NCBI GenBank assembly: GCA_045632465.1
Contig: JAZQWS010000068.1
Span: 1 to 43,254 of the forward strand
Length of the DNA: 43,254 nucleotides
Source: Eubacteriales bacterium
GTDB taxonomy: Bacteria > Bacillota > Clostridia > Oscillospirales > CAG-272
Direction: 5' to 3'
Shown here piece after piece: positions 20,387 to 41,399 of this stretch (the first letter of the stretch is position 1; each line of letters opens with the position of its first letter). Made by a program: the position numbers and the translations under genes. The notes below the pieces were generated by a model. That model was not told the origin of the DNA, ran no database searches, and saw only the letters and a list, made by a program, of their open reading frames with translations.

Positions 20387-22672
20387 ATGGAAATTCAAAA
20401 ATGTGCCCGATGCCAAAAGCGTCCGGCTGTGGTGTTTATTACGCGCCTTGAAGGGGGAAAAACCGTCAATGAAGGTCTTTGCCTTGTGTGCGCAAAGGAG
20501 CTTGGAATCAAGCCTATCAATGATATATTGAAAAAAATGGGTGTCAGCGATGAAGACATCGAGAATATGAGCGGAGAGATGGAGGGGCTGATTGAGGCCG
20601 TTTCCGAGGATTCCGATGGCGGTGCACCTGCGATCGATTTCCCGAAAATATTCTCAGATATGAGCACGCCTTTCTCGTCGATAAATGGAGCAGGAGAGAA
20701 AAAAACGCCCAAAATGCAAAAAAACGAAAAGGCGGAAAGTGGCCGTAAGTTTTTGAATATGTACGCAACGAATCTGACAGCGAAGGCACAGCAAGGGCGT
20801 ATTGATCGAATGATCGGGCGCGATCGCGAGCTGGATCGCGTGATACAGATCCTTTGCCGCCGCCAAAAAAACAATCCTTGCTTGATCGGAGAGCCCGGAG
20901 TTGGCAAAACTGCAATTGCAGAGGCTCTTGCGCAGAGAATATTTGATAACCAAGTTCCTGAGCGCTTGCGCGGATGCGAGCTTTGGCTTTTGGATTTAAC
21001 CTCGTTGGTTGCAGGAACACAATTCCGCGGTCAGTTTGAGCAGAGAATTCTTGGCCTGATTCGTGAGGTGAAGCATGCCGGAAATATCATTCTCATGATT
21101 GACGAGGTGCATAGCATTGTCGGTGCGGGTGATTCCGAAGGCAGTATGAGCGCCGCAAACATCTTGAAACCTGCACTTTCTCGTGGCGAGATTCAGGTTA
21201 TTGGTGCAACAACCTTGAAGGAATATCGCAAGCATATCGAGAAGGATAGCGCTTTAGAGCGCCGCTTCCAGCCCGTGATTGTAGAAGAGCCATCCGTAGA
21301 AGATACGGTTTCAATTCTTTGCGGAATCAAGGGTTATTACGAGACATTCCATGGCGTTAAAATTTCGGATGAGGTTGCGCGCCTTGCCGTGATCATGTCT
21401 GAGCGATATATTACGGATCGATTCCTGCCGGATAAGGCAATCGATCTTGTGGACGAGGCTGCCGCGAGAGCATCCTTGACATCTCCGGAACTGAACGAAA
21501 TGCGTAGGGCAGAAAAGTCTCTTGCAGAGATGTCGAAGAAAAAAGAATCACTTGAAGCAAAGCTTGAGAATGAGAAGGAGCAGACCGAGGAAAATTATAA
21601 GCTTCTCGCCGATCTTAAGGTGGAAATGCTTCGCCTTGAGGGGCGTATTGATTCGCTTCGTCCTGCACTTGAAAATCTTTGCTTGACGGCAAATGATATT
21701 GCGGGTGTTATTGAAATTTGGACGGGAATTCCCGCCACCGACATTAAAGAAAATGATTTTGGTGCTTTAGAAACGTTGGAGGAGAAAATCTCTTCACAGT
21801 TGATCGGTCAAAACGAGGCTGTGGATGCTGTGGTTCGTGCGGTAAGAAGAAAACGCGCCGGCGTTTCGTATAGAAAAACGCCTATATCCATGATTTTTGC
21901 CGGACCGACGGGCGTTGGTAAAACCGAGCTTGTAAAAGTTTTGGCAATGGAGCTTTTCAAACAGCCGGAGGCCTTGATTCGTTTGGATATGTCCGAATTC
22001 ATGGAAAAGCATGCAGTTTCTAGAATTATCGGCGCCCCTCCCGGATATGTTGGTTATGATGAAGCGGGACAGTTGACCGAAAAGATTCGCCGCCGTCCGT
22101 ATTCCGTGGTTCTTTTCGATGAAATTGAAAAGGCGCATCCTGACGTAATGAATATTCTTCTCCAGGTTTTGGATGACGGAAAGATTACCGATGCGCAGGG
22201 ACGGGTGGTAAATTTTGAGAACACGATTATTGTTATGACAACGAACGCGGGAAGTGAAACTTCCTCTGCGATTTCCGGCTTCGCAATGGAAAAGAGCGTG
22301 GTCGCAAAGGATAAAACGCAAAGAGCGCTTGCGTCGTTTTTGCGTCCCGAATTCATTAATCGCGTGGATGAGATTGTAACATTCGCTTCGCTGACGCAAG
22401 TGGATTTTGAGTCTATTGCGAAACTGATGATGGGGAAGGTTGCCGCACATATGGCAGAAAAAGGTATTCGCGTAACCTTTGATAACGCAGTACTTGCAAA
22501 GATCGCCAAAGAATCTTATTCCGAAAAATTCGGCGCGAGAAACATGCGCCGTTATATTGAGAAGAATGTCGAAGATCTCTTGGCCGGCGCTATGATCGAG
22601 CATTATGAAAGCCGACTTGCCGGTATTCATTTCTCGGTCAAAAATGATAAAATAGTTATTGATTGTATTTGA
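20387..22672 (+). CDS. ATP-dependent Clp protease ATPase subunit with N-terminal C4 zinc finger (ClpE-like)
   Basis: CARC...CLVC N-terminus; two AAA+ modules (GEPGVGKT/IDEVH and [16 protein letters not shown]); 'GYVG' pore loop; 'ISGF' putative ClpP-docking loop. Confidence 0.92.
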   Translation: MEIQKCARCQKRPAVVFITRLEGGKTVNEGLCLVCAKELGIKPINDILKKMGVSDEDIENMSGEMEGLIEAVSEDSDGGAPAIDFPKIFSDMSTPFSSINGAGEKKTPKMQKNEKAESGRKFLNMYATNLTAKAQQGRIDRMIGRDRELDRVIQILCRRQKNNPCLIGEPGVGKTAIAEALAQRIFDNQVPERLRGCELWLLDLTSLVAGTQFRGQFEQRILGLIREVKHAGNIILMIDEVHSIVGAGDSEGSMSAANILKPALSRGEIQVIGATTLKEYRKHIEKDSALERRFQPVIVEEPSVEDTVSILCGIKGYYETFHGVKISDEVARLAVIMSERYITDRFLPDKAIDLVDEAAARASLTSPELNEMRRAEKSLAEMSKKKESLEAKLENEKEQTEENYKLLADLKVEMLRLEGRIDSLRPALENLCLTANDIAGVIEIWTGIPATDIKENDFGALETLEEKISSQLIGQNEAVDAVVRAVRRKRAGVSYRKTPISMIFAGPTGVGKTELVKVLAMELFKQPEALIRLDMSEFMEKHAVSRIIGAPPGYVGYDEAGQLTEKIRRRPYSVVLFDEIEKAHPDVMNILLQVLDDGKITDAQGRVVNFENTIIVMTTNAGSETSSAISGFAMEKSVVAKDKTQRALASFLRPEFINRVDEIVTFASLTQVDFESIAKLMMGKVAAHMAEKGIRVTFDNAVLAKIAKESYSEKFGARNMRRYIEKNVEDLLAGAMIEHYESRLAGIHFSVKNDKIVIDCI

Positions 22673-23604: not shown

Positions 23605-26082
23605 TTATTTCTCGGATGCGGCCGGGATAAATCGATCTTTGGGGATGGGGGGATGTTTCGTATATTCTTTCGGAAGATACTGAAATGTAAGCATATCTTC
23701 CGTTTCGTCGTGGTCGACAAGGATACGTGTATTGTTTTCTAAGCCGTATTCCACTATTTTTTTTGATATTGGAGTTTCGATTTCATCTACGAACATTCGA
23801 GCGAGAGGGCGCGCCCCCATACCTGCGCGTAAACTCTTTTTAGCAATAAAACTGAGGGCAGCATCACTGATCTGCAATGAATAACCAATGGAAGCGATTC
23901 GTTCCATGAGAGCGTCAGCTCGATTTTTTGCAATCGTTGCAAGCGTTTTTTCGTCGAGCGGAGAAAAAAGAATAATCTCGTCCATGCGGTTTATAAATTC
24001 GGGACGAAAGTAATTCTTGAGGTGGTCTGACAGATTCGGACGATCTTTGTTTTCAAGAAAACCAAGTCCGTTACGGTTTTTGAATTTGTCAGCACCGATA
24101 TTGGATGTCAGAATAATCACGCTATGACGGAAACTGACTGTGCGCCCGCAATTGTCAGTGAGTGTTCCGTCGTCGGTGATTTGCAGAAGCAGATTCAAAA
24201 CGTCCGGATGTGCCTTTTCAATTTCATCGAAGAGAACCACTGAATAGGGATGACGGCGGATCTTTTCGGTCAGCGTTCCTCCTTCCTCGTATCCAACATA
24301 GCCGGGCGGTGCACCGATAAGCTTGGATACAGAATGCTTTTCTAAAAATTCGGACATATCGTATCGGATAATGGCTTTTTCGGAAGAAAATAAAGATCTT
24401 GAGAGTGCTTTGGCGAGCTCTGTTTTACCAACGCCGCTTTCGCCGATAAATAAAAAAACACCAACGGGACGCAAGGGATCTGAAAGACCGGCTTTATGGC
24501 GGAGAATGGCTTCTGAAAGTGCACGTACTGCGGGCTTTTGACCAAGCACATATCGGTTAAGCGTTTGTTCAAGATGTGCATCATTTTTTGTGTTGAGATC
24601 TCGAACCGGAATACCGGTAATTTCCGTAACGATTTCTTCGATCTGCTCAACGTCTATGATACTTTTAGTAGCAAGATGATTGCTTTTCTCGAAAACTGAT
24701 TTATATTGCTCTGAGTAAATATTTTCTAAATCTCTTAAATGAAATGCGAGCGAAAAATTTCGGTTTTTAAGAGCTTCCGTTTTGCTGTTTTTTGTTTGTT
24801 GGATTTTTTCGGAAAGCTCAGAGATCTCTTTTTCTGCTTGATCGGATTTTTCAACCGCAAAATGAACAATGCGTTTTTTTGCGCAAGCTTCATCCAAGAG
24901 ATCCAGCGCTTTGTCGGGTAAATAACGGTCTTGCAAATATTGAATCGAGAGCTGAACGCAAGCCCTTAATGCCTCAGGCATGATAATAACGTCATGAAAG
25001 GCTTCGTATCGTTCTTTGACCCCTTCGAGTATTCGGAGTGCTGCGGCTTCGTCAGGCTCTCGAATTGCCATGGGCTGAAATCTTCTTTCAAGCGCGGGAT
25101 CTTTTTCGATCGTTTTTCTGTATTCAGCTAACGTAGTTGCTCCGATAATCTGTATTTCTCCGCGCGATAACTCCGGTTTTAGAATATTGGCGGCATCAAT
25201 AGCACCTTCCGCCGCTCCGGCGCCGACGATAGTGTGTATTTCATCGATAAACAGAATAACTTCACGATTGGCACTTACCTCTTGAACAATATTCTTGATT
25301 CTTTCTTCGAAATCTCCTCGGTATTTTGTCCCTGCTACCATCGTGGTCAGATCAACGGAAAAAATTTTTTTTCCAAGCAAAGGCTTAGGGACGTTACCTA
25401 CAGTAATCCTGTGCGCCAAGCCTTCGACGATTGCGGTTTTTCCAACACCGGCTTCTCCCAATAGGCAGGGATTGTTTTTGCTTTTTCTGCAAAGTATGCG
25501 AATTAAACGATCGGTTTCTGCTTCGCGTCCGATAATAGGTTCTGCGCGCGCCTGAAATCTGGCACCCGTAAGTTCTTTCCCATATTGCGATAAAAGTGGC
25601 AGGGAAGAGCTTGCGTTGATTGAGAATGTTGCCGATGCCCCTTTATCATTACTTCGCATAAAAGTTATCAGTTCATCGCGGAGTTGTGAAATATCTGCGC
25701 CCAAATGTTCCAAAAGCTTTCGAGCCACGCATTCGCGCTCTTCCACAACTGCTAAAAGAATGTGTTCCGTTCCGATTTTTGGAGTATTGTATTTTTGCGC
25801 ATTTTTGTGAGAAAGCTCCAAAAGCTTTCGACATCGCGGTGTCATATCCGTAGGAGTTAAGCGGCTTTTTTGTCCGCTTCCTGCATAAGTCTTGATTGCA
25901 TTTTCGATCTTTTTTGCATCAATGCTTTGCTTTTGAAGAAAAATATTTGCAAGGCTCATTTCTTCCTTTGCTAACGCAAGAAGAATGTGCTCGCTTCCGA
26001 TATACGTATGTCCGAGACTTTGTGCCAGAGGAATGGTGTTGTTCAGCACCTTTTCTGCTTTTTCAGTGAATTTATTGCTCAT
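23605..26082 (-). CDS. clpC: ATP-dependent Clp protease ATPase subunit ClpC
   Basis: Two Clp_N repeats ('[11 protein letters not shown]', 'IGTEHILL'), GEAGVGKT and GESGVGKT Walker A motifs, UVR-like '[18 protein letters not shown]', 'LGF' loop. Confidence 0.93.
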
Positions 26083-26151: not shown

Positions 26152-26673
26152 TTATTCTTTTTCAAGAAATGCAAGTCTTGCTTCCAATTCATTTTCCAAT
26201 CTTTCAAAGAGATTTGCATCTACCGTCCCGCTTTCTTCTACTTGAAACTTTTTCTGTACGTACCGTATAGCGTTTTCCGTTTCAGCGGAAAAATAAGTGG
26301 AGCGTGGAATGCTGGGAAAATTTTCATCATGTTCGGCAAGAACACGTAGCAGCGCATGCAAGACTTCAACATCGTTGCCATGTGATCCCTTTTTTAATGG
26401 ATACGCATGTTTGACATGTAAAATAGTATCTGCTTCGTTTTTTCTCCTGTATTCGAAAAAAACATCTCTGAGTTTTTCAAAGGTGAGGAAGTCAACAATA
26501 CCGGTGATCGGTAGCTTTTGCTTTCTTTGAAAATCTGAAATCGCGCGCATGGTTGTGTCGGTATAAATGCCGTTTCGCGATGCAAAATATTCGATGCCTT
26601 CGTATAAATGAATTTCGTAAAGATAATCCTGGATGCGGCGTATTGCTGCTTCTGTGTTGTTTTGTGTGTACAT
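26152..26673 (-). CDS. Protein made of two peptidoglycan-binding (PG_binding_1-like) domains, no catalytic domain seen
   Basis: 'IRRIQDYL...NGIY...T..AISDFQRKQKLPITGIVD..TF' and 'LKKGSHGNDV..L...YF..ETENAIRYVQ..F.....G.VD'; ATG 26673 follows AAAGGAG. Confidence 0.8.
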   Translation of the reverse strand: MYTQNNTEAAIRRIQDYLYEIHLYEGIEYFASRNGIYTDTTMRAISDFQRKQKLPITGIVDFLTFEKLRDVFFEYRRKNEADTILHVKHAYPLKKGSHGNDVEVLHALLRVLAEHDENFPSIPRSTYFSAETENAIRYVQKKFQVEESGTVDANLFERLENELEARLAFLEKE

Positions 26674-26686
26674 TGCGTCTCCTTTG

Positions 26687-28084
26687 TTATGTGATTGGAT
26701 ATCCGGGAAATTGATCGTTGCCAACCAATGCGCCCGCATAGAGGTCCTCATAGATTGAGGCGATCGCATCCCATATCGTCGCGTTCACACGGCCGTTGGT
26801 ATCCGGCAATCTGTAGCTTTGTACAAACGCTCGAACTGCCGCTTCCGTGGCAGGGCCATATGCGCCATCGGGCGTTATGGCAGGAATGGAAGGGTTCTTT
26901 TTCGCAATGAAGGATAGGTACTCCTGCAAAACACGAACGTCATTTCCTTCAATGCCCAGACGCAAAATGCGCCCGGGATAGGGAATAATCTCGCCTTCGC
27001 TGAATATATAGGGGATATTTTGTACCTGGCTATAATAGATTTCCTGAATTTTATTCCATGTTAAGCGATTGACAACGCCTGTGATCGGCAACCCATATGT
27101 CCTTTGAAAAGAAATTACAGCTTCTTTCGTTGCAGGACCGAAACTGCCGTCAATGGTAACAGAGCGCACGGTTGGAACGTAGTTTGCAATATAGCTTAGA
27201 TAGTATTGCAAAACCAAAACGCCGTCTCCTTCTATGCCTTCGCTGAGTTCAGAAGGGTATTCCGTTGAAAGATCTGCAATCTTTAAGCCTTCGGAATTAA
27301 GCTCATATAATCGTTTCACGGCGTTGTAGACAGATTGTATACTGTACCAAGTATTTTTTCCAACCAATCCGTCCTCGGCGAGGCCGAAAACTTTTTGAAA
27401 TTCTTTTACCGCATCGGTGGTACTGATGTCAAAAAGTCCATCTGCCGGATAAATTTTCGGAATTCTCGGAAAATTCACCGAGATTCGGTTCAGTCGCCGT
27501 TGAAGTAATTCAACATCTCGTCCGGTGTCACCTTCCTTCAGCGGTATTGGAGGAGCGCTGGAAACGCTATTTTCGATCGGCGTATCGGAAACAATTTCGA
27601 TGTCTTGGCCGTAGTATCTTCGGAGTATTTCTATCGCCGAAAGGCCGCGGTTTGCGAGATCTACGGAGCCCCATTGCGAAAGCCCATCGCATTGCACCTC
27701 GATACCATCGCAAAAGGCGGCAAAAAGTGGCTCCAGCGATCCGTTTCTGCGAATATAATTCGTGAAAATTTCGTCAACGATATCGGAAATGTTTTCGAAT
27801 ATATCCCTTTGAAAAACAAAGGATTGATCAAATGCGGTAGAGGACGTGATATCAAAATCATAGCCGCGGCTTCTATAGTATTCTGTGTAAACTCTGTTAA
27901 GAGCTACAGAAATTTGAGCCAGAATGTTAGCTCGCAAGGATTCATCGGGCCAGGTTGGATATATTTCACTTGATGCAACGTTTTTTATATAGTCGGTAAA
28001 GCTAAGTGTTACATTGGCGGCATCCTCTGTGGGAGCACCTAAGTGAACCACTATTTTCTCGGGGATAGTTGGGTATTCAATCAT
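26687..28084 (-). CDS. sleC: SleC-family spore cortex-lytic enzyme: catalytic domain plus three peptidoglycan-binding domains, no N-terminal pre/pro region
   Basis: 'IPEKIVVHLG.P', 'DYIKNVASSEIYPTWP', 'LNRVYTEYYRSRGYDFDITSSTAFDQ', 'CDG..V.C.GLSQWGS', then three 'L..G..G.DV..LQ..L...DG.F/YG..T..AV..FQ' repeats. Confidence 0.88.
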   Translation of the reverse strand: MIEYPTIPEKIVVHLGAPTEDAANVTLSFTDYIKNVASSEIYPTWPDESLRANILAQISVALNRVYTEYYRSRGYDFDITSSTAFDQSFVFQRDIFENISDIVDEIFTNYIRRNGSLEPLFAAFCDGIEVQCDGLSQWGSVDLANRGLSAIEILRRYYGQDIEIVSDTPIENSVSSAPPIPLKEGDTGRDVELLQRRLNRISVNFPRIPKIYPADGLFDISTTDAVKEFQKVFGLAEDGLVGKNTWYSIQSVYNAVKRLYELNSEGLKIADLSTEYPSELSEGIEGDGVLVLQYYLSYIANYVPTVRSVTIDGSFGPATKEAVISFQRTYGLPITGVVNRLTWNKIQEIYYSQVQNIPYIFSEGEIIPYPGRILRLGIEGNDVRVLQEYLSFIAKKNPSIPAITPDGAYGPATEAAVRAFVQSYRLPDTNGRVNATIWDAIASIYEDLYAGALVGNDQFPGYPIT

Positions 28085-28097
28085 GGATTGCTCTCTT

Positions 28098-28502
28098 TCA
28101 GTTTAAACTAAGATTTTCTGTAATAACGGCGGTTTCATTTTCTCTCGGTGCATTCTGTTGTGTATTATAAGGTGTTGAAGGGATCATGTTGATGGGTAAA
28201 ACGGAAGTGATGCCTGAGAACATCGCGACGTCGTAAATCTTTTTTTGATAGTATCCTTCTTTGTAAATTTCGACATTGTATCTGGAAAAAGCCTCTTCTG
28301 TGTTATCGGGAGAAAGTGACAGTACGCGCGGCGGTGTTGGCAAAAGAATCGGTTGTGTGACTCCGTTTTCATCGCTTAGTATGGATATGCGCGTATCATG
28401 GCCAACATCGGATGCGCCGCTGATGCTTACGTTAACACCGGCGACCGGATATGCGCCTGAGGCAGTCGTTGTTCGAACGATCATGATTCCATATTCCTCC
28501 AT
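28098..28502 (-). CDS. Stand-alone SleC N-terminal pre-domain-like protein (carboxypeptidase regulatory-like fold)
   Basis: 'G...V....ASGAYPV.G..V.I...SDENG.T....LP.P....SL.P......FSRY.V.....GY......V..F.G......I.M.P' pattern resembles the N-terminus of clostridial SleC precursors; AAGGAGG RBS. Confidence 0.75.
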   Translation of the reverse strand: MEEYGIMIVRTTTASGAYPVAGVNVSISGASDVGHDTRISILSDENGVTQPILLPTPPRVLSLSPDNTEEAFSRYNVEIYKEGYYQKKIYDVAMFSGITSVLPINMIPSTPYNTQQNAPRENETAVITENLSLN

Positions 28503-28585
28503 AAATCGAACCTCCTTGTGGAATTCGGATAAAAAACGTGTGCATATTTCGCGCTTTTTGACAACATTTGATTTTTGTTTTGCTC

Positions 28586-35117: not shown

Positions 35118-37061
35118 ATGATTTTCAATTTTATAGGGGATATTTCAGATGTTGAAGCGGGATTGAAAATTCTTGCTCCGGATTACGGATTCTCGATCTG
35201 TTCTTGCGGAATCGAAACGGCCGTTGTGAAGGGAGATCATCTTGCGGTCTCCTTTGATGGAAAGAAAGCATCCATTACGTATAGTCGCCCCTGCGAATTT
35301 TTCCGTGCGATCGGCCTTCTTTTGCAGGAAACCGAGGATGGAAAGAAGCCCTACGCCAAGGAAGAATGGGCGAAGTTTGATACTTGTGGCGGAATGGTGG
35401 ATCTTTCGCATGGTTCTTTGATGAATGTAGATGCACTGAAAAGCTGCATGCGTAAGATGGCAATGATGGGTCTGAATATGTTCCTTTTCTATAGAGAGGA
35501 ATCCTATCACGTTCCGGAATACGAGTATTTCGGATATATGAGAGGCAGACATACGGACGAGCAGATTAAAGAGCTTGATGATTACGCATATGCACTCGGA
35601 ATTGAGATCATTCCCGCTATCCAGTGTCTTGGTCACCTTGGACATACGTTGCACTGGGGACAATTTGCCCCCATTCGAGATACGCCCAACTGTTTGCTTG
35701 TTGGTGAAGAGGAAACCTATCGGTTCATCGAATGCATGCTGAAGGCGGCAATGCGCCCGCTTCGCACCAAGCGTGTACATATCGGCTTTGATGAAACGAT
35801 GAGCCTTGGAACCGGCGCATACCGTGTAAAGCATGGTCTTGTTCCTCGCGAGGACATCTTCTGCGAGCATCTTCAGCGCGTAGCTGAGATCTGTGAGCGC
35901 ATGGGACTTCAGCCGAATATTTGGGCAGATATGTTCTTCCGCATCGGCGGCGCGGCAACCGGTTTTGATATTACCAATCATGATGTTCCCGAAGAAATGA
36001 AGAATAAGATTCCCGAAAATATCGAGCTGACTGCTTGGGATTATACCTCTTTGGATACTACCAATCTCGAGCAGGAAATCCGTTCGCTTAAATCCAGCGG
36101 AAGAACGATGTGGTTTGGCGGTGCTGTGCAGGATTGGCATGGCTTCTGCGTAAACTATTATCTCACGCGCGCCGCAACGGAATCGGCTCTGCCGCTTTGC
36201 AAGCGCCTCGGAGTTAAGAATATTATTGATACCACTTGGGGAGATGGAAGCACAGAACGCGATTTCTTCTGTAATTTCCTTGGCTTCCAGATGTATGCGG
36301 AGCATATGTATAATGATGCCCCCACGTACGAAGAGATTCAGCATCGCTGCGATTTCTGCATCAAGGCACCTGCGCAGATGATTTTGGATATTGCAGATAT
36401 CGACAATGCCGAGCATGTCGAGGATCTTCTTGCGCTGAAGGATGATATTGTGGATTCCATGGCGCCTGAAAATACGACTGCTCGAACCCTGGACAGCTCG
36501 CCTTCTCTCGTGAATCCCACGTTCTATCTTATGTGGCAGGATCCTCTTGCCGGCCTCTTTGATACCGAGCCCGTGAAGCTTGATTTCAGAGCGCATTTCC
36601 TTGCGCAGAAGAAAAAACTTGAGGGATATGTAGGAAAATATCCTGAGTATGAGCAAACGCTTGTATTTTATATCTCTCTTTGCGAAACGTTGATTGAAAA
36701 GTGCGATATCGGTATACGCCTTCGCGATGCATATCTCGCAAAGGACAATGTGGCTCTCAAGTCGCTTATCGACATCGATGTTCCGAAGCTGATCGACCTG
36801 GTGGAGGATCAATGGCTGAAGTATAGAACGCTTTGGTTCTTGAGAAACCAGGCATTTGGATTTGATGTGATCGAGCGCCGTTACGGTGGAGTAATTGCGC
36901 GTTTGAAGACGACCATTTATCGTGTAAACGAGTATCTGGATGGAAAAATTGATTTCATCGAGGAGCTTGATGAGCCTCGTCTGCCTGCTACAAGAAAGAG
37001 CAACCATATTTCGTACAGTCATTCTTATTTGGGTGTTGCCTCTGCTTGGGGAACTCCTTAA
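35118..37061 (+). CDS. Glycoside hydrolase family 20 beta-N-acetylhexosaminidase-like protein (no signal peptide)
   Basis: 'FGYMRGR', 'IPAIQCLGHL', catalytic 'VHIGFDE', 'IWADMF', 'TWGDG', 'WQDPL', 'FGFDV...RYGG..AR'. Confidence 0.88.
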   Translation: MIFNFIGDISDVEAGLKILAPDYGFSICSCGIETAVVKGDHLAVSFDGKKASITYSRPCEFFRAIGLLLQETEDGKKPYAKEEWAKFDTCGGMVDLSHGSLMNVDALKSCMRKMAMMGLNMFLFYREESYHVPEYEYFGYMRGRHTDEQIKELDDYAYALGIEIIPAIQCLGHLGHTLHWGQFAPIRDTPNCLLVGEEETYRFIECMLKAAMRPLRTKRVHIGFDETMSLGTGAYRVKHGLVPREDIFCEHLQRVAEICERMGLQPNIWADMFFRIGGAATGFDITNHDVPEEMKNKIPENIELTAWDYTSLDTTNLEQEIRSLKSSGRTMWFGGAVQDWHGFCVNYYLTRAATESALPLCKRLGVKNIIDTTWGDGSTERDFFCNFLGFQMYAEHMYNDAPTYEEIQHRCDFCIKAPAQMILDIADIDNAEHVEDLLALKDDIVDSMAPENTTARTLDSSPSLVNPTFYLMWQDPLAGLFDTEPVKLDFRAHFLAQKKKLEGYVGKYPEYEQTLVFYISLCETLIEKCDIGIRLRDAYLAKDNVALKSLIDIDVPKLIDLVEDQWLKYRTLWFLRNQAFGFDVIERRYGGVIARLKTTIYRVNEYLDGKIDFIEELDEPRLPATRKSNHISYSHSYLGVASAWGTP

Positions 37062-37075
37062 GTCTGCTTACAATG

Positions 37076-37121
37076 AAAAAAACTCCGATAGCATCTTTTT
37101 TGATGTTATCGGAGTTTTTTT
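37076..37121 (+). terminator. Intrinsic terminator after the GH20 gene
   Basis: AAAAAAACTCCGATAGCATC...GATGTTATCGGAGTTTTTTT. Confidence 0.85.
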
Positions 37122-37218
37122 ACTTTGTTTGACAAGCGTAAGTAATTTTTCCTTGTTTTTTTATAAAGAAAATGAAAAAAATAAAAGGGAAGTGAAAAGA
37201 AAGGATTCTTGTGCAAGA

Positions 37219-37998
37219 ATGATTATAAAAAGAGGATTGGCTTTTTTTACGTTGACAATTTTGATTTTTTCGCTTGTTTCCGGCAATGTATTTGCGACCG
37301 AGTGCCACGGAAAAAGCTTCTATATAAAAAAGAACGGGAATTTACGTCCCATATTGCCGGATGATGAAAAGGCGATCGAGATGTATGATGCTTTTTATAT
37401 AGACCCATGTAAAACAGACGGTGATACTGATAAGGTTTTATATCTCACCTTTGATGCAGGATACGAAAACGGAAATGTTGAAAAGATATTGGATACACTG
37501 AAGGAAGAAAACGCTCCCGGTGCATTTTTTCTCCTTGGGCATATCATAAGAAAAAACACGGATCTTGTGAAAAGAATGAGCCGAGAAGGGCATATCGTTT
37601 GCAATCACACGGAAAATCATGCGGATATGACACAGTGTTCTAAAGAAGAAATGTGCGAAAATCTTTCCCGACTCGAAAGTGTATATAAAGAACAAACCGG
37701 CGAGACGATGGAGAAATTTTTCCGTTTTCCTGAAGGAAAGTACGATGAAGATCACCTTTCCTATGCAAAAGAAATGGGATATAAAACGTTTTTTTGGAGC
37801 TTGGCTTATGCAGATTGGGACAACAACAAACAAATGAATACGGAAAAAGCTAAGAAAATTCTCCTTGAAAATACACACAATGGAGCGATTATCCTACTTC
37901 ATCCAACTTCTTCGACCAATGCAAAAATTTTGCCCGATCTCATCAAGGCGTGGCGTGCGATGGGATATAGATTCGGAAGCCTCAAAGAATTTGTTTAA
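37219..37998 (+). CDS. pdaA: Polysaccharide deacetylase, PdaA-type (muramic delta-lactam-forming de-N-acetylase)
   Basis: Signal peptide ending 'VFA'; 'LYLTFDAGYENG', 'NHTENH.DM', 'FRFPEG', 'FWSLAYADWD', 'HNGAIILLH'. Track start at 36940 overlaps GH20 and the terminator, so rejected. Confidence 0.85.
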   Translation: MIIKRGLAFFTLTILIFSLVSGNVFATECHGKSFYIKKNGNLRPILPDDEKAIEMYDAFYIDPCKTDGDTDKVLYLTFDAGYENGNVEKILDTLKEENAPGAFFLLGHIIRKNTDLVKRMSREGHIVCNHTENHADMTQCSKEEMCENLSRLESVYKEQTGETMEKFFRFPEGKYDEDHLSYAKEMGYKTFFWSLAYADWDNNKQMNTEKAKKILLENTHNGAIILLHPTSSTNAKILPDLIKAWRAMGYRFGSLKEFV

Positions 37999-38837
37999 GT
38001 ACGGAATCCTTCCAGCAGGGAAATACGCTTATTGGCGTAGCGATAAGCTTGTTCGAAGTTGATAAGCTCCTTATAGCAGAGTTCCAAATCGGAGTAAACG
38101 CTGAGGATAACGCAGGAGTTATATTGTTCGGGGCCTTTCATATCCTCTAACTTGTGAAGAATATTAATTGCTTCGTTGTATTTTCTCGTGCGCAGAAGAG
38201 CTTTCGCTTCCATGTGCAGGCGAAAGACTTCATTCTCATAGGAAAATTCTTGATCCTGATGAAGATAACGGAAGAATTCGTAATCGTAGGAGGAAAATAT
38301 GTGTTTGTTAAAAGCTTCTGCATCGAGCTCCAATAGGGGGGATTGGATGTTTCTCACAATGGCACTATAGAGCGGAATCAGTGCTTTGAATTCTTCTGTT
38401 GGATAAATACAGCTATCCATGTGCTTTTTGCAGTTCTCGAAATGCTGTTCGGCGCGGCGAAGATCTCCGGCGATTGTTAAGCGCTTTCCATAATAAAAGG
38501 AGGCGCAAACGTAAAGAAATCGAATCTCATCATCCATTTCGCCAAGCGAGTCTATCAATGTAAGGCAATCCTGATATCTCTTTTGTGCATATGCTTTTCT
38601 TATGTTTGGGATTGCCTTTTCTTTTTTATAGGAAAAGAGATTCGCTTCTTCGTCCATCAGATATCCGATAGGCAAATTCAAGGTTTCTGAAAGATATTTC
38701 AGTGTTTCGATCGAAGGCTGAACCTTGCCGGATTCTATGCAGCTGAGCATGTTTCTGGTGATGAAATCGCCCGCGATTGCGTTTTGAGTCAATCCGAGAC
38801 GAATTCGTTCTGCCTTTATTTTTTCTCCTAATTTCAT
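37995..38837 (-). CDS. XRE-family HTH regulator with helical TPR-like C-terminal region
   Basis: 'LGEKIKAERIRLGLTQ..IA...ITRNMLS.IESGK..PS.ETL.YLS..L' HTH; TPR-like helices (e.g. 'DLELCYKELINFEQAYRYA'). Confidence 0.82.
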   Translation of the reverse strand: MKLGEKIKAERIRLGLTQNAIAGDFITRNMLSCIESGKVQPSIETLKYLSETLNLPIGYLMDEEANLFSYKKEKAIPNIRKAYAQKRYQDCLTLIDSLGEMDDEIRFLYVCASFYYGKRLTIAGDLRRAEQHFENCKKHMDSCIYPTEEFKALIPLYSAIVRNIQSPLLELDAEAFNKHIFSSYDYEFFRYLHQDQEFSYENEVFRLHMEAKALLRTRKYNEAINILHKLEDMKGPEQYNSCVILSVYSDLELCYKELINFEQAYRYANKRISLLEGFRT

Positions 38838-38852
38838 TTTTTCTCCATAAAA

Positions 38853-39869
38853 TCAATGTTTCTTTTGGATGTCAGAAAGTGGGTTTTGTTCCATGGCTTC
38901 TTCGATGTTTCGGCTCACGACGTGAGTGTATATTTGTGTTGTGTTTAATTGCTCGTGTCCGAGTATATCCTTGAGAACTCGGATGTCTACCTTTCCGGTC
39001 TGATACATTAGCGTTGCCGCGGTGTGACGAAGCTTATGAACCGAAAGTCCACGATGTCCAAGCCCTGCAGCTTCCAGATATTTATAGGCTAACCATTGAA
39101 CTGTTTTAACGGAAATGCGGGTTTCAAGGCGGCTGATAAAAAGAGCCTTTTCGTCGGTTCGGATATATCTTGGATCGAGGCGAACGCGCAGATAATCCTG
39201 CAGACTTATTTTGCAGGCGTTATTAAGATAGATCATACGCTCTTTGTTTCCTTTTCCGAGAACCATTACTTGCGTTAGATCGGAGTCGAAGCTGTCAATG
39301 TTGAGACCAACAAGCTCACTTAAACGCATTCCCGTATTCAGAAACAAGGTGAAAATACAAAGATCTCTCGCCACGGTTTTGGATTCAATATCATTTTGGA
39401 TGGCGGAAAGAAAACGGATCGATTCCTCCAAGGTCATATATTTTGGAAGGGATTTTTTTGCCTTCGGTCCTTCCACATCGGCGGCGGGGTTGCTTTCAAT
39501 CAAGTGCTTTTTTGTATAAAGATAATGAAAAAAGGACTTGATCGCGCTAAGCTTTCGCATACGCGTATTGGAGGTATTTTCGCGCTTCGTAGCGATATAC
39601 ATGATAAAATCGATGATATTTTGCGTCGTTATGCGCTTAACATCATCTAAGGTGATATGGCTGATAGAGAGTGCCTCAAATTCTTCGGCAGATAAATCAG
39701 CTCCTTCCTCACGCATTCTTAAAAAACGGAAAAACGTGCGCAGATCCAGTAGATATTCGCAAATAGTTTGGGGGCTGTTTCCGCGTATCGCCGTTGTGTA
39801 TGAGGCATATTCCTGAAGGATTTTTGGAAACGTGCGGAATTCAGCATTGTTCATTTCAAGCACAGCCAT
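38853..39869 (-). CDS. xerC: Tyrosine recombinase, XerC-like
   Basis: Intact catalytic set: R (TGMRLSE), K (GKGNKER), HxxR (HKLRH), H (LGH), Y (TQIYTH); ATG 39869 follows GGAGGTG. Confidence 0.88.
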   Translation of the reverse strand: MAVLEMNNAEFRTFPKILQEYASYTTAIRGNSPQTICEYLLDLRTFFRFLRMREEGADLSAEEFEALSISHITLDDVKRITTQNIIDFIMYIATKRENTSNTRMRKLSAIKSFFHYLYTKKHLIESNPAADVEGPKAKKSLPKYMTLEESIRFLSAIQNDIESKTVARDLCIFTLFLNTGMRLSELVGLNIDSFDSDLTQVMVLGKGNKERMIYLNNACKISLQDYLRVRLDPRYIRTDEKALFISRLETRISVKTVQWLAYKYLEAAGLGHRGLSVHKLRHTAATLMYQTGKVDIRVLKDILGHEQLNTTQIYTHVVSRNIEEAMEQNPLSDIQKKH

Positions 39870-39955
39870 AGCATCACCTCCGTTTTTCACTACTTCTATT
39901 ATACAAAATAAATTTTAATTTTAGTGGATAAAGTGTAAACATTTGTCGTTTTGCC

Positions 39956-40613: not shown

Positions 40614-40642
40614 GAATACTTGATGCTTGACCTCCATATGGT
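40614..40642 (+). promoter_or_regulatory. Putative sigmaE-type sporulation promoter of cwlD
   Basis: GAATACT (40614-40620) - 14 bp - CATATGGT (40635-40642), compared with the B. subtilis sigmaE consensus (T/G)(A/C)ATAxx-N14-CATAcaxT. Confidence 0.45.
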
Positions 40643-40670
40643 TTACCGTATGGAGGTCGTTATGTTTTTT
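40629..40670 (+). terminator. 13-bp hairpin followed by a T-rich tract; also covers the cwlD Shine-Dalgarno
   Basis: GACCTCCATATGG-TTTA-CCGTATGGAGGTC (one G-U pair), then GTTATGTTTTTT. Confidence 0.6.
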
Positions 40671-41399
40671 GAGTATGTTTTTAAGGAAAAGAAGAGCGGC
40701 GTGGTAACTTTGTTTTTTCCGTTCTTGATTTTAACTGTTTTTCTTTTGGCGGTTACTCCGATTCTCTTATCTTGCGCTAAAAGTGTTTCGGTAGAGAAAG
40801 AGAAATCCGGGCGTGTTTTTATATTGGATGCGGGGCACGGCGGGGAGGATTGCGGAGCAATAGGAAAAAATGGCGCTTATGAAAAGGATCTCAATTTGAC
40901 GATAACTATGGAGCTGGGACGCCAACTTTCCGATCTCGGTTACACCGTAGTATATACGCGAACGGAGGATAAACTTCTTTATACTGATGAGGAGAATATC
41001 AAAGGGCTGCGGAAAATATACGATTTGAAAAATAGAGTCAGGATTGCAGAAAGCTATCCCGATGCTACGTTTGTTAGTCTGCATATGAATTCATTTTCCG
41101 ATCCAAGATATGATGGCTTGCAGGTTTTTTATTCGGGGAATCACGAAGAAAGCTACATATTGGCGGCATCCGTACAATCGCAGGTGAAGGAAAAACTGCA
41201 ACCGAATAATAACCGAAGTATCCGAGAGGGGGCGGGGCTCTATCTAATGGAAAATCTCACATGTCCCGCTGTTTTGATTGAATGTGGTTTTATATCCAAT
41301 TCATCAGAGTGTGAAAAACTTTGCGAAAAAGAATATCAAAAACAATTGTGTTTTGCCATTTTATGTGGTATAATAGATGTAAATACAAAGAAAAAATAA
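40662..41399 (+). CDS. cwlD: N-acetylmuramoyl-L-alanine amidase (Amidase_3), CwlD-like
   Basis: N-terminal TM segment; 'ILDAGHGGED', 'EKDLNL', CwlD-type insert '...RKIYDLKNRV', 'SLHMNSF...Y.GLQVFY', 'LIECGFISN'. Confidence 0.8.
   Translation: MFFEYVFKEKKSGVVTLFFPFLILTVFLLAVTPILLSCAKSVSVEKEKSGRVFILDAGHGGEDCGAIGKNGAYEKDLNLTITMELGRQLSDLGYTVVYTRTEDKLLYTDEENIKGLRKIYDLKNRVRIAESYPDATFVSLHMNSFSDPRYDGLQVFYSGNHEESYILAASVQSQVKEKLQPNNNRSIREGAGLYLMENLTCPAVLIECGFISNSSECEKLCEKEYQKQLCFAILCGIIDVNTKKK
41346..41374 (+). promoter_or_regulatory. Putative internal sigmaA promoter for radA inside the cwlD 3' end
   Basis: TTGTGT (41346-41351) - 17 bp - TGTG-G-TATAAT (41369-41374), extended -10. Confidence 0.6.

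Follow-up and report, generated by a model that had tools for sequence, protein, structure and literature searches.

A predicted SleC-type cortex-lytic enzyme of a gut bacterium is encoded in three adjacent genes and not as a single chain activated by proteolysis

As listed below, three adjacent genes lie on the minus strand of the window, which is the whole stretch of DNA that was analysed (43,254 nucleotides; contig JAZQWS010000068.1 of assembly GCA_045632465.1, Eubacteriales bacterium). The first two are ORFs of 134 aa (28502–28098) and 465 aa (28084–26687), which lie in different frames with 13 bp between them; the larger begins MIEYPTIPEKIVVHLG and holds three peptidoglycan-binding repeats. 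This layout had been described in an earlier sequence-only reading and was confirmed, but that reading took the two genes as the unit and overlooked a third ORF of 173 aa (26673–26152), which follows on the same strand after a second 13-bp gap. Judged from sequence comparison, this gut bacterium encodes a SleC-type enzyme as three neighbouring genes and not as one protease-activated chain. The features are as follows.

28511..28517, minus strand: ribosome-binding site AAGGAGG of the small gene (gene 1), from the sequence.
28098..28502, minus strand: gene 1, a 134-aa stand-alone SleC pre-domain (transthyretin-like beta sandwich) followed by a stretch of about 15 residues with homology to the first part of the pro-region (profile, fold, and a model with pLDDT 90.9).
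28085..28097, minus strand: spacer of 13 bp, holding a weak ribosome-binding site rich in purines, in place of the pro core and the CspB-cleaved linker (sequence, locus comparison).
26687..28084, minus strand: gene 2, a 465-aa SleC-type enzyme, which starts with its catalytic domain (about aa 1–172; sequence comparison).
Gene 2, C-terminal part: three peptidoglycan-binding repeats (about aa 178–447) and then a QFPGY linker stub.
27965..27967, minus strand: codon of Glu40 of gene 2, likely catalytic, aligned with SpoIID Glu101 (alignment).
26674..26686, minus strand: 13-bp spacer with the ribosome-binding site AAAGGAG of the third gene (sequence).
26152..26673, minus strand: gene 3, 173 aa, consisting solely of two peptidoglycan-binding repeats; some lineages have it joined to the C-terminus of the enzyme.

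No terminator was found on the minus strand after gene 3. A ClpC-like gene starts 69 bp past gene 3 on the same strand, no terminator being found between them, and it is one of two Clp ATPase genes that face each other (20387–22672, plus strand; 23605–26082, minus strand). Elsewhere in the window are genes for two possible cortex muramic-lactam enzymes, an Amidase_3 gene (40620–41399, plus strand) and a pdaA-like deacetylase gene (36940–37998, plus strand; 258 bits against a cut-off of 298), as well as a tyrosine recombinase gene with an HTH gene (37995–39890, minus strand).

SleC of Clostridium perfringens and Clostridioides difficile is a single zymogen, whose pre-region aids folding and whose inhibitory pro-region is removed by CspB at germination. 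Gene 2 matches C. difficile prepro-SleC (PDB 9h68) over chain residues 214–477 (E 1e-68). The numbering of the 9h68 chain is offset by 57 residues (a tag), and the gene 2 enzyme therefore starts at about native residue 156–157; residue 156, going by the work on C. perfringens, is the CspB cleavage site, and the match agrees with the proposal that the large ORF starts about where mature SleC begins. By the same offset, the chain arginines at 169, 172, and 176 are native R112, R115, and R119, which the relevant passages of bioRxiv 2024.06.10.598338 give as the YabG sites of C. difficile SleC. A SpoIID/LytB-type catalytic domain with its conserved Glu is present in gene 2, as is a C-terminal peptidoglycan-binding domain, here made of three PG_binding_1 (PF01471) stretches versus one in canonical SleC; a full-length match to NCBIfam spoIID TIGR02870 was not reached (23.7 bits against a cut-off of 234.75). 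Glu40 is invariant in 66 of 66 aligned rows and is aligned, inside a weak stretch, with E101 of SpoIID chain 5txu, which is described as catalytic in the part of PMC6221140 concerned with that enzyme; Glu40 is likely the catalytic residue of the gene 2 enzyme. The SpoIID lytic transglycosylases (PF08486; PDB 4rwr, 5i1t, 5txu) thus resemble gene 2 in the aligned catalytic Glu and QWG motifs, but they lack a pre-domain and PG_binding_1 repeats and, according to the same part of PMC6221140, have an engulfment role after SpoIIP. Three repeats are found in 120 of 133 complete split enzymes, while canonical enzymes have one. The split enzymes of one family (f48; L123, L125, L129, L143, and L144) are shorter, with frames of 376–414 aa, and keep the third gene; five two-repeat enzymes were counted.

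The small ORF alone gives a weak match to the C. difficile pre-domain (E 0.075). A profile of 66 small ORFs, on the other hand, matches 9h68 at native residues 2–120 (E 1e-21), and a fold search with the structure model of the gene 1 product (pLDDT 90.9) returned 9h68 at ranks 1–4 (E 1e-8, TM 0.76–0.78), so that the identification of the small ORF as the SleC N-terminal pre-domain is supported by both family profile and fold. No Pfam family was assigned to the gene 1 product; 19 of 66 of its relatives match CarboxypepD_reg weakly, and DUF3869, the name given to this domain in bioRxiv 2022.02.25.481979, gave no match for the small protein. It can be seen from the alignment of the tails that the small ORFs end at the position of the I.I.PNTL stretch, which opens the canonical pro-region, and the tail past the folded domain is variable, with a median of 22 aa. 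The pro core (G.YPPKIPE...GVV) was found in neither gene at any of 138 split loci, compared with 10 of 11 canonical-branch loci and a variant form in the eleventh. The sequence-only reading had reported the pro-sequence as missing from both ORFs, which is correct for the core, but the first 15 or so residues of the pro-region persist as a stub at the end of gene 1. In all 138 split loci, the enzyme has just 11–17 residues before the conserved His of VHLG, and therefore no pro-peptide is left to cut. Canonical features absent here include the pre-domain on the chain of the enzyme (it is a separate gene with a stop codon) and an inhibitory pro-peptide before the catalytic domain. At several loci (L018, L069, L078, L092, L113, L139, L140, L147, and L154–L156), the frame of the pre-domain is extended upstream by 100–300 residues, often rich in Pro, Gln, or Glu; the extension of L018 (160–1473) has no Pfam match, and some such extensions may be untranslated.

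Two ORFs that are separated by a change of frame may also arise from a sequencing frameshift or a decaying gene, and the frames in the window do differ by one base, in an assembly that is a 406-contig MAG with a GC content of 45.5% for this contig and 50.8% overall. The sequence-only reading had cautioned that deletion of one base in the T run at 28102–28104 would fuse the ORFs, still without the pro motif. Assemblies of four runs from four studies were aligned to the region: contigs from three of the four runs (three studies) span the junction with at least 31 letters on each side and no gap, and the contig of the fourth run also has no gap but ends too near the junction to count. The independent contigs show no indel, and the one-base error is not supported. 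In addition, the 138 split loci have varied gaps and Shine–Dalgarno words of their own, with all three frames in use at the junction (52/39/47) and an SD-like word ahead of the enzyme start in 136 of 138 distinct loci. The dN/dS values are 0.079 for gene 1, 0.038 for gene 2, and 0.12 for gene 3, i.e., 0.04–0.12 across all three genes, and they come from one pair of relatives because dS between the window and its relative was saturated. Frameshift and pseudogene were ruled out by these independent contigs, the recurrence of split loci, and the dN/dS values, which leave an artefactual split with a vanishingly small probability.

Within the genus, all 16 other loci with the junction on a contig are split, with gaps that range from overlap to 36 bp. 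Among the best 80 GTDB loci, 77 are split, 1 is fused, and 2 are truncated, which is no census because these loci were picked by their likeness to the query. An even draw of 241 Clostridia gave 55 genomes with the catalytic domain, and the even-draw genomes and nearer relatives make up a panel of 77 genomes, of which 61 (13 families) are split, 15 fused, and 1 undetermined. The split class (138 distinct loci) was defined by a pre-domain gene directly upstream, and no locus with enough upstream DNA was without this gene, save the right half of one interrupted gene. The rows left out are G005 (junction off the contig), L021, L070, and L084 (truncated), and L111 and L135 (duplicates); the two halves of the interrupted gene (L169, L170) were excluded from the locus counts and the tree, and their genome, G228, was counted as fused. 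The arrangement is conserved within the genus, but it is not peculiar to the lineage since 13 families share it, in keeping with the caveat that similar split genes might already exist unremarked in related genomes. Full-text searching, with most subscription papers and supplements outside its scope, found no description of a split SleC; in those passages of two surveys that touch on it (bioRxiv 2022.02.25.481979, PMC3533761), SleC is treated as a single multidomain protein or mentioned briefly. NCBI names some of the stand-alone small proteins 'spore cortex-lytic protein', and the genes are therefore annotated but unremarked. Cultured carriers of a stand-alone small protein include Zongyangia hominis and Anaeromassilibacillus senegalensis. 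Two split loci (L073, L097) are on records labelled Akkermansia and with a Bacteroidales name, and these are likely misbinned contigs or labels. In G228 (C18:28309-41593), the catalytic domain of a canonical sleC is interrupted by about 12.8 kb, one end of which carries a large serine recombinase of 568 aa (Resolvase + Recombinase); this insert may be a skin-like element that is excised during sporulation.

The relationship of split and fused enzymes was studied with an unrooted tree of 67 catalytic-plus-first-repeat regions, to which the 17 genus loci contributed 5 rows and the 80 GTDB loci 3. All 50 split rows are on one side of a single branch (97/95; 98% of bootstrap trees), and, across a 100/100 branch from 11 canonical rows, the 50 split rows stand together with 6 long fused rows, the latter with 2–6 repeats and non-canonical linkers. 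By this tree, the split branch groups with long SleC2-like forms and not with canonical SleC, the named SleC2 protein itself being outside the tree. The simplest reading would be that the long forms first gave up the pro core and their dependence on Csp and that a stop and a new start then replaced the linker, although the order of events is not fixed because the tree is unrooted. It has been reported, in the passages of Brunt et al. 2016 (PMC5083711) on these proteins, that SleC2a/b are long SleC paralogues with 4–5 peptidoglycan-binding domains and a putative function. L153 (fused, 794 aa, five repeats), one of the 6 long fused rows, shares 50% identity with gene 2 over 452 aa, and only its length and architecture were used to equate it with SleC2a; its likeness to the split form extends to the missing canonical pro core and to the number of repeats, as gene 2 and gene 3 together have 3 + 2 = five. 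The long forms are a single chain that includes a linker of about 40 aa, whereas two breaks give three genes here, and the SleC2 arrangement of repeats and pre-domain on one chain is absent (three repeats in gene 2, two in gene 3, the pre-domain in gene 1). In one genome (G075), a long form occurs alongside canonical SleC.

A repeat-only third gene follows 95 of the 129 split loci that have room for it, versus 0 of 16 fused loci, and fusion explains some of the 34 split loci where it is absent. For instance, in 10 of 10 checked enzymes from families f21 and f72, which were chosen for having no separate third gene or for being longer, the best scores of the fourth and fifth repeats are with the first and second repeats of the third gene; similarly, a Q[FY]PG linker stub ends 52 of 77 enzymes that precede a third gene. 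From these repeat matches and stubs, the third gene is therefore a natural fusion partner of the enzyme. Derivation of gene 3 as the simple cut-off tail of a SleC2-like chain was not supported, as, by score, its repeats do not correspond to those at the end of L153. Gene 3 may serve to anchor or tune the enzyme.

Csp was searched for with a profile built from five Csp domains, in panel genomes that are MAGs, mostly more than 90% complete, so that an absence means 'not found'. It was found in 0 of 61 split versus 10 of 15 fused genomes, all ten with a canonical linker. The comparison of split and fused state with Csp, which the sequence-only reading had put forward, gives this contrast, but the split is one change on the tree, and the contrast is therefore a single event without statistical support; a statistical Csp–split correlation was dropped, as there is one independent contrast only. 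Five fused genomes are also without Csp, namely four having only long forms and G054, and the fused long forms have no pro core either; hence, the split need not have caused Csp independence. The absence of a csp subtilase gene from the window extends to the whole assembly (92% complete), where no Peptidase_S8 was found, and to 17 congeners: none of the 18 genus genomes yielded Csp or any other subtilase. A search for YabG was positive in 1 of 61 split genomes and gave nothing in this assembly or in the 17 congeners. GerC is present in 20 of 61 split genomes, YpeB is above the cut-off in 3 of 61 (0 of 18 in the genus), and 39 of 61 are without Csp, GerC, and YpeB together. Hydrolase_2, i.e., the SleB/CwlJ family, was found in 32 of 61 and not in 29 of 61, and, with no YpeB over the cut-off in 58 of 61, the split SleC is often the sole recognisable cortex-lytic candidate. 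The assembly itself contains spo0A, one GerA-family gene, two mother-cell-type sigma factors, and the pdaA-like gene, the sigma-K and pdaA-like matches falling below curated cut-offs. Its only SleB/CwlJ-family gene (G000:C52:15565-16452) has a signal-peptide-like start, and does not resemble canonical SleB or CwlJ; no YpeB was found. The assembly bin may be mixed, given the GC content of the contig and a size of 2.6 Mb compared with 1.2–2.1 Mb in 24 congeners drawn; despite the GC mismatch, the enzyme of this contig groups with those of congeners (100/99), and 17 of 17 congeners show the same absences.

A non-Csp protease might still activate the enzyme, by cutting or degrading the small partner or by trimming the enzyme. 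A subtilase of some kind is present in 35 of 61 split genomes, a variable tail is kept after the folded domain of the small protein, and pro-SleC of C. difficile is partly cleaved even without CspB activity, according to the relevant part of PMC3567191. Against this, there is the lack of any subtilase match in the 18 genomes of the genus and the short N-terminus before the VHLG His at 138 of 138 loci, which offers no pro-peptide to cut, and proteolytic activation is accordingly considered unlikely.

As for expression, no RNA data set carrying the stretch was listed, a result with no bearing on whether it is expressed. A usable upstream region is present at 115 of the 138 loci, and in 47 of these 115 the pattern AC-N16-18-CATA...T precedes gene 1; the reverse strand gave 2 matches and shuffles gave 3.75 +/- 2.5. 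Although kin are not independent, the excess is large. In the genus, 8 of 16 loci have this sigma-K-like pattern, while upstream of gene 1 in this window no match was found, and the CATA words there fall in or near a sigma-70-type promoter of the divergent prs gene. AC is a sigma-K −35 element, and C. difficile sleC is listed as sigma-K dependent, in the portion of PMC3789822 that covers these genes. The sigma-K-like promoter of the relatives would also fit an operon that has left germination for late sporulation, such as lysis of the mother cell or remodelling of the cortex, for which an enzyme made in its finished form would require no switch; the additional wall-binding repeats and the kinship with long SleC2-like forms of putative function (PMC5083711), one of which is present in G075 beside canonical SleC, point the same way. 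However, canonical sleC is likewise sigma-K driven, and with 29 of 61 split genomes lacking a SleB/CwlJ-family match and 58 of 61 lacking YpeB over the cut-off, no other cortex hydrolase is recognised, so that a move out of germination appears improbable.

The prepeptide of C. perfringens SleC stays bound to the enzyme non-covalently after cleavage. Binding of the small to the large protein, as the sequence-only reading had envisaged, is supported by modelling: the predicted complex of the gene 1 product and residues 1–268 of gene 2 scored 0.81, versus 0.00 for the best of three controls, a pass that may show likeness only (memory of 9h68, released in 2025) because the halves resemble this solved chain. 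Among solved complexes, 116 of 157 attained the mark, compared with 2 of 215 mismatched pairs, and the prediction was fed with the alignments of this analysis. The runs share at least 63% of contacts, with a partner pLDDT of at least 79, and the predicted interface on the enzyme (residues 42–45, 92–98, 100, 138, and 141) comes directly after Glu40. Interface conservation is marginally above that of the remainder (p 0.054 for the small and 0.088 for the large protein), and 0 of the top 100 inter-gene covarying pairs fall at the predicted interface.

It is proposed, with a probability of about one half, that the split SleC-type enzyme digests the cortex at germination without CspB cleavage and that the pre-domain, which is predicted to bind by the active site, keeps it folded and quiet. 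The operon would be transcribed by sigma-K late in the mother cell, and the products of gene 1 and gene 2 would form a heterodimer that reproduces the canonical pairing of pre-domain and enzyme, with no YabG or CspB cut needed. The edge strand (aa 95–105) and a loop (59–65) of the pre-domain would contact enzyme residues 42–45, 92–98, and 138 by Glu40 and thereby restrain the enzyme, while gene 3 would supply two extra wall-binding repeats that help to hold the complex on the cortex or to tune it. A non-Csp germination cue, which may be Ca-DPA release, rehydration, or a ligand, would then shift or free the partner. The control of cortex lysis without CspB through a partner subunit, as first suggested, is partly supported by the missing Csp (0 of 18 genomes in the genus), the lost pro core, and the modelled binding, though not as a peculiarity of one lineage.

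The inhibitor of canonical SleC is the pro-peptide and not the pre-domain, according to the part of PMC3567191 that treats inhibition, and an inhibitory role of the pre-domain is therefore inferential. The small protein may instead serve in folding, stabilisation, or delivery alone, with the enzyme active as made and dormancy kept by the state of the spore, as for Ca-DPA-activated CwlJ, or by the third, wall-binding protein as a brake. Absence of the pro core, which is the known inhibitor, suits such an arrangement, and the prepeptide of C. perfringens is reported to be required to produce active enzyme (Okamura 2000), which fits an activator or chaperone; in addition, the third gene occurs with split loci only, and CwlJ is activated by Ca-DPA, as stated in the pertinent section of PMC5083711. 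A predicted interface that covers residues 42–45 and W138 beside Glu40 is less easily explained in this way, and the third gene is absent at 34 of 129 split loci, of which fusion explains only some. A purely assisting role is possible, though less probable than the proposed heterodimer switch.

Compared with prepro-SleC of C. difficile (CD0551, PDB 9h68) and C. perfringens, which is processed by YabG and CspB, the proposed heterodimer has a homologous pre-domain and a SpoIID/LytB-type catalytic domain in the same order, a peptidoglycan-binding domain after the catalytic domain, and, in relatives, a sigma-K-like promoter. Unlike prepro-SleC, the pre-domain has its own gene, the pro core and the cleavable linker are absent, three repeats replace one, a third repeat-only gene is added, and Csp and YabG were not found in the lineage. 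The SleB-YpeB and CwlJ systems are alike in principle, as a hydrolase is made mature and controlled by a partner or Ca-DPA (PMC5083711, PMC13393411), but the fold and partner are unrelated, and YpeB was found in 0 of 18 genus genomes.

SleC has been described as a zymogen that requires CspB, while here a whole branch of SleC, which occurs in no fewer than 13 families of gut Clostridia, most of them uncultured, was found without the pro-peptide or Csp. A broader and rather unlikely extension is that, in a large group of commensal gut Clostridia, germination follows a third route not yet described, without Csp and often without GerC or YpeB, in which the free pre-domain would be the switch that holds the enzyme shut and releases it on a cue such as bile salt or Ca-DPA. 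The split SleC is a natural experiment on the function of the pre-domain, and with three small soluble proteins and cultured carriers the question is directly testable. The germination of commensal spores bears on transmission and on spore-based microbiome therapies.
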